The position numbers were made by a program, and so were the translations under genes. Positions 56,323 to 58,233 of a DNA stretch of 64,000 nt are shown in pieces. The notes beneath the pieces were generated by a model. The model ran no database searches and was not told the DNA's origin. It saw nothing but the letters and a program-made list of their open reading frames with translations. Numbering within the stretch: position 1 is the stretch's first letter; each line of letters starts with the position of its first letter. Location: assembly GCF_016026235.1 (NCBI RefSeq), contig NZ_CP065613.1; one strand, 5' to 3'. This stretch comes from Escherichia coli (GTDB lineage Bacteria; Pseudomonadota; Gammaproteobacteria; Enterobacterales; Enterobacteriaceae).

Positions 56323-56798
56323 TATTGGACTCCATGAAAAAATATTATTGTTAATTGTAACGGCGGGGCGGTTTTGTGATGAGCGCGGATATGTCGTGAA
56401 GTCGTGACAATATAAGGCAGAGTGAAGGATAAATTTTGCGGTGTAAGGCACATATTGATGGGTTAAATAAATGTTGTGAATAAAAAATCATTATTTAATG
56501 ATTTTGTGAATGTTTAACTGTTGCGGATATTTTTCTGCCACGTTATTTATATTTGTGGCTTATGAGTCAGTTTGAATCATATCTAATATTTTTTACGATA
56601 TTTAGTTAAAAACGGCACTATTGTTATATTCCTCACGTTCCAGGAAATCAGCGGATTTACTCATATTATACGGCGGGATACTATCCATCGGCCTGCTGAA
56701 GTTGGATTAAAAATTCGAAAGTGCACACTTTATATTTCTCTATATACGTATTCCTTTTGGAAAGCGTAGGGCCTCCTTTATTTCAGGGAACGTAAATA

Positions 56799-58193
56799 AT
56801 GAAAAAATCGACATTATCTTTAGCCATCGGTTTATTATTGGCATGTAGTACCGGTATGGCAAAAACACAGCATTTAACGCTGGAACAACGCATGGCATTG
56901 CTGGAAGAACGCCTGGAAGCGGCAGAAATGCGGGCGGCAAAAGCAGAGAGCCAGGTTAAACAGCTGCAGACACAACAAGCCGCTGAGATCCGCGAAATTA
57001 AGGCCGCTCAGGGCAATACGCCGGTAAATGGACAGGCAACGGCGGAATCTGCAAAGAAAAATGCCACCTCACCTAATCTTTTGCTTTCAGGTTATGGCGA
57101 TTTAAAAATCTACGGCGACGTAGAATTTAATATGGATGCGGAAAGTAATCATGGCCTGCTGGCAATGACCAACGCTGATGTGAATAGTGATCCCACTAAT
57201 GAACAGTGGAATCTCAATGGTCGTATTCTGTTAGGTTTTGACGGTATGCGAAAGATGGACAACGGTTATTTCGCCGGGTTCTCCGCACAACCGCTGGGTG
57301 ATATGCACGGTTCAGTAAATATCGATGATGCGGTATTCTTCTTTGGCAAAGAAAACGACTGGAAGGTCAAAGTAGGCCGTTTTGAAGCCTACGATATGTT
57401 CCCGCTGAATCAGGATACCTTTGTTGAACATTCCGGTAATACTGCGAACGATCTTTATGACGATGGCAGCGGTTATATCTATATGATGAAAGAGGGCCGC
57501 GGGCGCTCTAACGCTGGCGGTAATTTCCTCGTCAGCAAACAACTTGATAACTGGTATTTTGAATTAAACACGTTACTTGAAGACGGAACATCTTTATATA
57601 ATGACGGTAATTATCATGGACGCGATATGGAGCAGCAGAAAAATGTTGCTTATCTGCGTCCGGTAATTGCCTGGTCGCCGACGGAAGAATTCACCGTTTC
57701 CGCAGCGATGGAAGCGAACGTGGTAAATAATGCTTATGGTTATACCGATAGCAAGGGTAATTTTGTCGATCAGTCCGATCGTACCGGCTATGGTATGAGC
57801 ATGACCTGGAACGGCCTGAAAACGGATCCGGACAATGGCATTGTGGTTAATCTTAATACCGCCTATTTAGATGCTAATAATGAGAAAGATTTCACTGCCG
57901 GGATTAACGCGCTGTGGAAACGTTTCGAGCTCGGTTATATCTACGCGCACAATAAGATTGATGAATTCAGCGGTGTAGTTTGTGATAACGACTGCTGGAT
58001 TGATGATGAAGGGACGTACACCATTCACACCATTCATGCGTCTTATCAGTTCGCTAATGTGATGGATATGGAGAACTTTAATATTTACCTCGGGACGTAT
58101 TACTCCATTCTGGATAGCGACGGTGATAAAAAACACGGTGATGATACTGATGACCGTTACGGCGCACGCGTTCGCTTTAAATACTTCTTCTGA
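56799..58193 (+). CDS. putative outer-membrane beta-barrel porin with N-terminal coiled-coil extension (sugar-porin-like)
   Basis: 464-aa ORF; Sec signal peptide; about 50-aa heptad-like charged coiled-coil region (LEQRMALLEERLEAAEMRAAKAESQVKQLQ); alternating aromatic/Gly-rich barrel-like sequence ending in C-terminal FKYFF. Confidence 0.6.
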   Translation: MKKSTLSLAIGLLLACSTGMAKTQHLTLEQRMALLEERLEAAEMRAAKAESQVKQLQTQQAAEIREIKAAQGNTPVNGQATAESAKKNATSPNLLLSGYGDLKIYGDVEFNMDAESNHGLLAMTNADVNSDPTNEQWNLNGRILLGFDGMRKMDNGYFAGFSAQPLGDMHGSVNIDDAVFFFGKENDWKVKVGRFEAYDMFPLNQDTFVEHSGNTANDLYDDGSGYIYMMKEGRGRSNAGGNFLVSKQLDNWYFELNTLLEDGTSLYNDGNYHGRDMEQQKNVAYLRPVIAWSPTEEFTVSAAMEANVVNNAYGYTDSKGNFVDQSDRTGYGMSMTWNGLKTDPDNGIVVNLNTAYLDANNEKDFTAGINALWKRFELGYIYAHNKIDEFSGVVCDNDCWIDDEGTYTIHTIHASYQFANVMDMENFNIYLGTYYSILDSDGDKKHGDDTDDRYGARVRFKYFF

Positions 58194-58233
58194 TGAAGGC
58201 GCGGTGCTGGATATTTTCCGGCACCGCAACTCA

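Follow-up and report, generated by a model that had tools for sequence, protein, structure and literature searches.

A chromosomal RafY-family porin gene beside rhaM in Escherichia coli that looks like a stand-alone orthologue of the raffinose-plasmid porin

RafY, the outer membrane porin of raffinose plasmids of the pRSD2 type, is given in the passage of PMC4809568 that deals with it as a glycoporin for maltose, sucrose and raffinose, and secondary accounts of its behaviour describe a wide pore for general diffusion. For the RafY family TCDB predicts 16 strands, and in its superfamily tree the sugar porin family is the one nearest to RafY (PMC4827864). In a comparative study of O157:H7, a rafY homolog was named rafY2 in strains without rafRABD (PMC4809568). 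A further relative has been reported from Klebsiella pneumoniae. The porin GlyP was assigned by its authors to the RafY family, whose channels they describe as having a larger pore than OmpK35/36, and GlyP, which is controlled by the LacI-type regulator GlyR, offsets the loss of the major porins once derepressed (bioRxiv 10.64898/2026.03.29.715108). ScrY and LamB (1a0s, 1mpr; PF02264 and PF11471; TCDB 1.B.3) provide a functional analogy, namely oligosaccharide uptake across the outer membrane.

We analysed a 64,000-nucleotide stretch of Escherichia coli DNA (contig NZ_CP065613.1, hereafter the window), for which an initial annotation had reported an unassigned porin-like gene between the frv operon and the rhamnose genes. 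The open reading frame, with an ATG start and the C-terminal residues RFKYFF, lies between frvA and rhaM exactly as it had been placed (Table 1). Its product matches Pfam PF16966 (Porin_8, glycoporin RafY) with an E value of 2.7e-153 and a score of 510.9, positions 1-372 of the 372-position model being aligned to residues 104-464. Over 450 aligned aa it has 79% identity and 86% positives to a porin of the E. coli plasmid pNMBU-W05E18_03; the plasmid protein compared here is the one that follows the genes for a LacI-family regulator, a GH36 alpha-galactosidase, an MFS permease and a GH32 hydrolase (rafR-A-B-D) on that plasmid, and not RafY of pRSD2 itself. In RefSeq the product is named "carbohydrate porin" (WP_000749940.1; strain FDAARGOS_943, 100% identical to the window). 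Together with the name rafY2 (PMC4809568), these results overturn the label "unassigned". A known conserved E. coli gene occupies this locus; it is already catalogued as a member of the known RafY-type family (TCDB 1.B.15) and is not novel. We consider, with a probability of roughly 80%, that it is orthologous to RafY of the raffinose plasmids and stands alone on the chromosome, with a wide pore and a promoter of its own.

Searches with the profiles of other porin families were negative. Pfam LamB (PF02264) gave no match to the porin at E ≤ 10, and neither Porin_1 (PF00267; OmpF/OmpC/PhoE) nor OprB (PF04966) matched it. The NCBIfam scan returned no family, only a spurious coiled-coil match (E 0.17), and the sequence search of the PDB returned only chance dehydroquinase matches (E about 0.5) and no RafY-family structure. 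The family is small, with 658 clusters at 90% identity (E ≤ 1e-5); at 50% identity (E ≤ 1e-3), 235 representatives were found among 1.84 billion proteins. It occurs in two forms, a long one of about 455-483 aa with a TLEQRLxxLExRLxAAExRA helix and a short one of about 350-390 aa without the helix. All named long-form relatives come from Enterobacterales (Citrobacter, Kluyvera, Klebsiella, Raoultella, Enterobacter, Buttiauxella and Budvicia).

RafY of pRSD2-type plasmids has the same length as the chromosomal porin (464 aa), and the identity between the latter and the pNMBU-W05E18_03 porin runs from the coiled coil through the barrel to the C-terminal RFKYFF. Both proteins carry a Cys pair in one common loop, CDNDC in the chromosomal porin and CNNGC in the plasmid protein. 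Their surroundings differ. The plasmid gene lies downstream of rafR-rafA-rafB-rafD, in a cluster that has RafR operators, whereas the chromosomal gene is alone between frvA and rhaM and has no such operator nearby; upstream of the porin genes, the best match to the RafR operator (CCGAAACGTTTYGG) had at least 4 mismatches at the 13 specified positions. GlyP is likewise a chromosomal enterobacterial porin, but its operon also includes a permease and a hydrolase and lies behind its repressor, whereas the E. coli porin has neither an adjacent regulator nor adjacent catabolic genes.

The N-terminus of the protein reads as a typical Sec signal peptide, in agreement with the initial annotation: n-, h- and c-regions are present, the residues at -3 and -1 are small, and the A-K(T/S) junction (MKKSTLSLAIGLLLACSTGMA followed by KT) is kept in homologues. 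A lipoprotein reading (LLAC16) was also considered and dropped, because the Cys has no counterpart in the Citrobacter, Kluyvera and Klebsiella orthologues, in which the A-K junction is kept; since Cys16 is not conserved, a lipoprotein is unlikely.

The protein was modelled with AlphaFold2 from a 45-sequence alignment (mean pLDDT 82, pTM 0.72). The model consists of a helix (residues 28-70, pLDDT about 88-91), a disordered linker (residues 72-97) and 16 strands between residues 101 and 463. The helix has a charged heptad pattern, so that the heptad-like segment described earlier does exist, although it covers about 43 residues rather than 50. It matches Sugarporin_N (PF11471) weakly (residues 27-54, E 0.06), and a precomputed PF11471 match is recorded for several homologues. 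The earlier description of a beta-barrel ending in Phe is borne out by the modelled 16-strand barrel and the terminal Y-F-F. A barrel of 16 strands, as predicted by the model, fits the TCDB prediction and the wide-pore behaviour of RafY.

The solved structures closest to the model are trimeric porins (OprP, Omp32, DcaP and VhChiP) and not the 18-strand LamB/ScrY. Classical 16-strand trimeric porins (OprP 2o4v, Omp32 1e54, Omp-Pst1 4d64, PorB 3a2s, VhChiP 5mdo and OmpF) are 9-15% identical to the porin, the likeness to general porins of the OmpF/OmpC type being one of fold only, and most of them lack the periplasmic coiled coil that is present here. Acinetobacter baumannii DcaP (6eus; 10% identity) is a member of another family and is associated not with sugar uptake but with that of dicarboxylates and sulbactam. 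The resemblance to ScrY that had been pointed out holds for the periplasmic helix joined to a barrel, ScrY also having an N-terminal coiled-coil extension, but not for the class of barrel, which has 16 strands in our model against 18 in LamB/ScrY.

The long loop between strands 5 and 6 contains the best-conserved motifs of the family, FEAYDMFP..QDTF and GYIYMMKEGRGRS. In this loop, E196, A197, D206, Y228, R234, G235 and R236 are invariant or near-invariant, and most of the invariant charged residues of the protein (E196, D206, R234, R236, R287, E305, R457 and R459) lie on the loop and the adjacent barrel wall. In the model the loop takes the position of the constriction loop L3 of classical porins and, by analogy with these, may contribute to the pore eyelet.

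Within E. coli, comparison of the window allele with a B2-type allele gave a dN/dS of 0.049 (dS 0.216), and values of 0.04-0.07 were obtained against C. rodentium and Kluyvera. Intact open reading frames of 464 or 463 aa were found throughout the lineages examined, and the identical protein is present on at least 1000 contigs. A dN/dS of about 0.05 reflects strong purifying selection and therefore shows that the gene is maintained; combined with the full-length Pfam match (E 2.7e-153), it also shows that the reading frame is not a chance one.

Table 1. Features of the porin locus (window coordinates) and the evidence for each. Residue numbers refer to the 464-aa protein.
Feature	Coordinates	Strand	Evidence
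AT-rich intergenic region common to the porin gene and divergent frvA	56323..56798	.	GC content, no annotated feature
Putative CRP-like site, TGTTATATTCCTCACG	56622..56637	+	cross-genus conservation
Candidate promoter, TTTACT (56656-56661), 17 nt, TACTAT (56679-56684)	56656..56684	+	footprint
Tentative hairpin/palindrome in the presumed 5' UTR, UACGUAUUCC-UUUU-GGAAAGCGUA	56745..56768	+	RNAalifold
Small predicted stem, UCCUU paired with Shine-Dalgarno AGGGA (56785-56789)	56774..56789	+	predicted fold
RafY-family porin CDS, 464 aa plus stop	56799..58193	+	ORF, Pfam, RefSeq WP_000749940.1 "carbohydrate porin", dN/dS
Signal peptide, aa 1-21, MKKSTLSLAIGLLLACSTGMA followed by KTQ, putative cleavage site	56799..56861	+	read from sequence
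Periplasmic N-terminal helix / coiled coil, aa 28-70, TLEQRMALLEERLEAAEMRAAKAE...	56880..57008	+	AF2 helix, heptad pattern
Low-confidence linker, aa 71-100	57009..57098	+	pLDDT <50 at aa 72-97
16-strand beta-barrel (modelled), aa 101-464, closing with OMP beta-signal F-K-Y-F-F	57099..58190	+	
Long loop between strands 5 and 6, aa 195-240	57381..57518	+	AF2 secondary structure
Strong hairpin, likely shared terminator	58201..58227	.	MFE, shuffles

Presence and absence of the locus across E. coli, which the initial annotation had proposed to check, were surveyed in complete genomes. At least 80% of the segment 56323-58233 was found in 2543 of 5426 genomes (about 47%), and 200 further matching places lie on plasmids. 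Identity is about 86% in the two plasmid matches listed; one of them was inspected and sits downstream of rafRABD. The locus exists in three states. The arrangement frvA-porin-rhaM is found in 1377 genomes, counted as those covering at least 80% of a 3.1-kb frvB'-frvA-porin-rhaM-rhaD' query. Porin and rhaM without frv are found in about 1166 genomes, a figure that is the difference of two separate searches (2543 minus 1377). In the only genome of this second state that was inspected, that of the urinary isolate uk_P46212, whose allele was called B2-type on the basis of divergence, the deletion takes in frvRXBA and part of yiiG, and the sequences of 56340-56438 and of 56467 onward are kept. In the third state, exemplified by K-12, the porin is missing and frvA directly adjoins rhaM, in line with the initial annotation. 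There, about 150 unrelated nucleotides stand in for positions 56472-58232, and a blastn comparison (word size 7) detected no porin remnant in this replacement segment beyond the shared rhaM-proximal end. Occasional IS1 truncations of the locus were also seen. The O157:H7 strains that carry the porin are without rafA, rafB and rafD (PMC4809568), and a dedicated raffinose role is therefore unlikely for it.

Convergent porin and rhaM genes also occur beyond E. coli, namely in three Citrobacter genomes, C. rodentium, Kluyvera and Klebsiella. Given this adjacency across genera, the position beside rhaM is most likely ancestral; the absence of the gene from the K-12 lineage is most likely a derived loss. 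In the E. coli, Citrobacter and Kluyvera loci no raf genes were found flanking the porin, which is a stand-alone copy there; they do accompany the positional orthologue of Klebsiella sp. B345, in which genes for LacI, GH36 and LacY proteins lie directly upstream of it. The control region of the B345 cluster contains two operators as on the raf plasmid, CCGAAACGTTTTGG and CCGAAACGTTTCGG, and because these are identical to the plasmid operators the cluster is genuinely of the raf type. Since the rhaM-adjacent porin thus closes a rafR-rafA-rafB-like cluster in one Klebsiella, the E. coli gene looks like a stand-alone chromosomal rafY orthologue and not like a rhamnose gene. The same slot in K. 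grimontii holds the porin with LacI, MFS and beta-helix proteins, and in Buttiauxella a family member ends an operon of LacI, ABC transporter, GH13, GH130 and DUF1861 genes. These cassettes show that the family is repeatedly tied to oligosaccharide utilisation. The glycan uptake role that had been offered as speculation is in fact the documented function of the RafY family.

The region upstream of the gene had been described as about 470 bp, AT-rich and gene-free. It is 476 nt long, has a GC content of 0.30-0.37 (about 0.55 in the genes on either side), and contains no gene in the RefSeq annotation of strain FDAARGOS_943; the start codon of frvA, on the minus strand, is at 56322. The CRP-like site in this region has two mismatches to TGTGA-N6-TCACA. 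A search of the window with the CRP consensus gave 29 matches against 25.7 expected, and the site is not significant by itself. Its weight comes only from its conservation across genera: TGTTA-N6-TCACG is kept upstream of the rhaM-adjacent porin in E. coli, two Citrobacter, Kluyvera and Klebsiella, amid diverged DNA. In E. coli, Citrobacter and Kluyvera, the footprint further includes an invariant TTTAC, always 18 nt past the CRP-like site, and a TA-rich hexamer 17 nt beyond TTTAC. A scan for sigma-70 promoter and terminator patterns gave counts no higher than in shuffles, and the candidate promoter fell below its threshold. If TACTAT is the -10 element, transcription would start near 56691, which would put the centre of the CRP-like site at about -61.5, in a class I arrangement. 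The conserved site and the promoter-like hexamers suggest that the porin has a promoter of its own, a proposal of the initial annotation that we find probable, and that this promoter may be under catabolite control via cAMP-CRP. As the site is not significant alone and the promoter was missed by the scan, we put this scheme forward as a proposal. A terminator-like palindrome lies downstream of rafB in Klebsiella, and the same CRP-like motif stands ahead of the porin there, which suggests that the porin forms a transcription unit of its own even within a raf cluster.

Two RNA structures are predicted between the candidate promoter and the start codon. In the tentative hairpin of the presumed 5' UTR, 5 of 14 pairs have both partners changed (RNAalifold, 5 sequences), and the fold energy is unremarkable (z -1.5). 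In the small stem, UCCUU and AGGGA are either invariant or changed on one side only, so that conservation is neutral on their pairing. An Rfam scan of 56250-58350 gave nothing relevant. At the other end of the gene, where porin and rhaM converge, the 40 nt between them are occupied by a hairpin with an MFE of -27.9 kcal/mol (z -6.4), a stability reached by 0 of 200 shuffles. This hairpin is likely a terminator common to the two genes; it is not listed in the terminator scan because it has no T-run. K-12 retains a related hairpin in its segment of about 150 nt.

Several other explanations of the gene were weighed against its reading as a rafY orthologue. Its adjacency to the end of the rha cluster, conserved across four genera, could point to a porin of the rhamnose system, induced by RhaS/RhaR and admitting rhamnose-containing oligosaccharides. 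RhaS regulons of some Enterobacterales do take in oligosaccharide uptake genes, for instance rhiTN, according to the passages of PMC3870299 that treat them, but the RhaS regulon described in those passages includes no porin. Furthermore, the convergent orientation and the strong hairpin between porin and rhaM mean that the two genes cannot be co-transcribed. When the 476 nt upstream of the porin were compared with the two rhaBAD RhaS half-sites, a test of low power, the closest sequences differed at 6 and 8 of 17 positions, no better than in shuffles, and the Klebsiella porin sits behind a raf-type or other LacI-controlled cassette. The rhamnose link suggested in the initial annotation is not supported by these observations, and we judge it improbable. 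No more probable is an outer membrane partner of the divergent frvABXR PTS operon, using a common control region and FrvR. Porin and frvA do diverge over a single AT-rich region, an arrangement retained in 1377 genomes, but about 1166 E. coli genomes (by difference) have the porin without an adjacent frvA and K-12 has frv without the porin. Moreover, no frv genes were found at the porin locus of Citrobacter, Kluyvera and Klebsiella, and the conserved motifs lie in the porin-proximal half of the intergenic region.

A specific porin of the LamB/ScrY type, with 18 strands, a greasy slide and saturable sugar binding, would agree with the N-terminal helix, which resembles the ScrY-type extension (Sugarporin_N E 0.06, and PF11471 in several homologues), and with the proximity of RafY to the sugar porin family in the TCDB tree (PMC4827864). 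It is very improbable given the lack of a Pfam LamB match and the 16 strands of the model. The same low weight is given to a decaying, functionless remnant of a raf cluster that has been lost. The E. coli gene is indeed unaccompanied by rafRABD, and it is gone from more than half of E. coli genomes, in some of them via IS1. However, the reading frames are intact in the lineages examined, selection on the protein is strong both within E. coli and across genera, the exact protein recurs on at least 1000 contigs, and the upstream motifs and the ribosome-binding region are conserved.

If the gene is a stand-alone orthologue of rafY, the following scheme can be proposed. The precursor would be exported through Sec and cut after Ala21, and BAM would insert the barrel via the C-terminal Y-F-F signal. 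The 16-strand barrel would probably form a trimer, as in its structural neighbours, with the long loop between strands 5 and 6 folding inward to constrict the pore and the helix of about 43 residues projecting into the periplasm, where it could make a trimeric coiled coil. By homology to RafY, the pore would be wide and largely non-specific, allowing the diffusion of di- to tetrasaccharides (raffinose, melibiose, sucrose, maltodextrins) and bulky hydrophilic solutes at low external concentration. Expression would come from its own promoter, probably cAMP-CRP-dependent, outside the rha and frv operons. The adjacency to rhaM would be inherited synteny, in a slot that in Klebsiella holds a rafR-rafA-rafB-like cluster plus porin or other sugar cassettes. 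A more far-reaching version, in which the porin acts as a CRP-activated, wide-channel alternative to the general porins and the 5'-UTR hairpin or the stem at the ribosome-binding site could add undescribed post-transcriptional control, is speculative and seems to us rather doubtful.

Chromosomal members of the RafY family are almost unstudied, and this porin is a well-defined candidate for such work rather than a new kind of system. It is absent from K-12 and carried by BL21-type, O157:H7 and many ExPEC strains; results obtained with K-12 on permeability, sugar scavenging and the entry of phages and antibiotics may therefore not transfer to carriers. If the more far-reaching version were correct, the presence of the porin in about 47% of genomes would alter outer membrane permeability to oligosaccharides and bulky antibiotics among E. 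coli strains, and the porin could compensate for the loss of OmpF/OmpC, as reported for GlyP in K. pneumoniae.

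In K-12, where frvA lies directly beside rhaM, a stretch of about 150 nt (1173–1322 of the K-12 locus, L004) stands in place of window 56472–58232, the segment that carries the porin gene. No similarity was detectable between the K-12 stretch and the porin segment; the segment has been replaced in K-12, not simply deleted. At its end the replacement keeps a hairpin, which is related to the one that lies between porin and rhaM, their likely shared terminator.

A different rearrangement was observed in the urinary isolate uk_P46212, which has the diverged B2-type porin allele. Compared with window 51537–56340, one deletion has removed frvRXBA together with part of yiiG, the remnant of which is a DUF3829 pseudogene. 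The deletion ends just within the frvA–porin intergenic region and spares the putative porin promoter region. The N-terminal extension of the mechanical frvA ORF reaches into this AT-rich region; RefSeq gives a shorter frvA of 148 aa starting at 56322, and the extension to the upstream GTG is probably spurious. An IS1A copy is located directly upstream of yiiG in the window strain (window about 50323–50411; L001 1–89). Strains HS30-1 and 100416 have a porin gene truncated by IS1. Overlapping repeated segments of about 45–135 nt were also seen in the rhaD–rhaA intergenic region (window 59416–59644). They match one another at an offset of ~90 nt, resemble REP/BIME elements and lengthen the longest ORF called for rhaD.

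Between the window porin allele (56799–58193) and the B2-type allele (5333–6727 of the uk_P46212 locus, L005) dS is 0.216, which seems high among E. coli genes and may reflect old allelic lineages or recombination at the locus. At the position equivalent to the CDNDC motif of the window porin, plasmid RafY has CNNGC; the CDNDC cysteines may form a loop disulfide.

The hairpin or palindrome in the presumed porin 5′ UTR reads UACGUAUUCC-UUUU-GGAAAGCGUA and shows compensatory changes when E. coli, Citrobacter and Kluyvera are compared. In the second predicted stem, the Shine-Dalgarno sequence of the porin is paired. Rfam contained no family matching these 5′-UTR structures. These elements could serve post-transcriptional control or represent an operator.

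Features at the porin locus and in the Klebsiella loci compared.
Feature	Coordinates	Remarks
Mechanical frvA ORF, 191 aa, GTG at 56451	window 55876–56451	minus strand
Hairpin or palindrome and second small stem, presumed porin 5′ UTR	window 56745–56789	
CDNDC, two Cys four residues apart, aa 395–399	window 57981–57995	predicted loop aa 388–404
raf-type LacI-GH36-LacY cluster and porin	L009 3123–9389	Klebsiella sp. B345
Porin, LacI, MFS_2 transporter, beta-helix protein	L014 100–5715	K. grimontii

The operators of the raf-type cluster in Klebsiella sp. B345 are identical to those of the raf plasmid. Comparison of the two Klebsiella loci indicates a variable site for carbohydrate cassettes in the slot upstream of rhaM.
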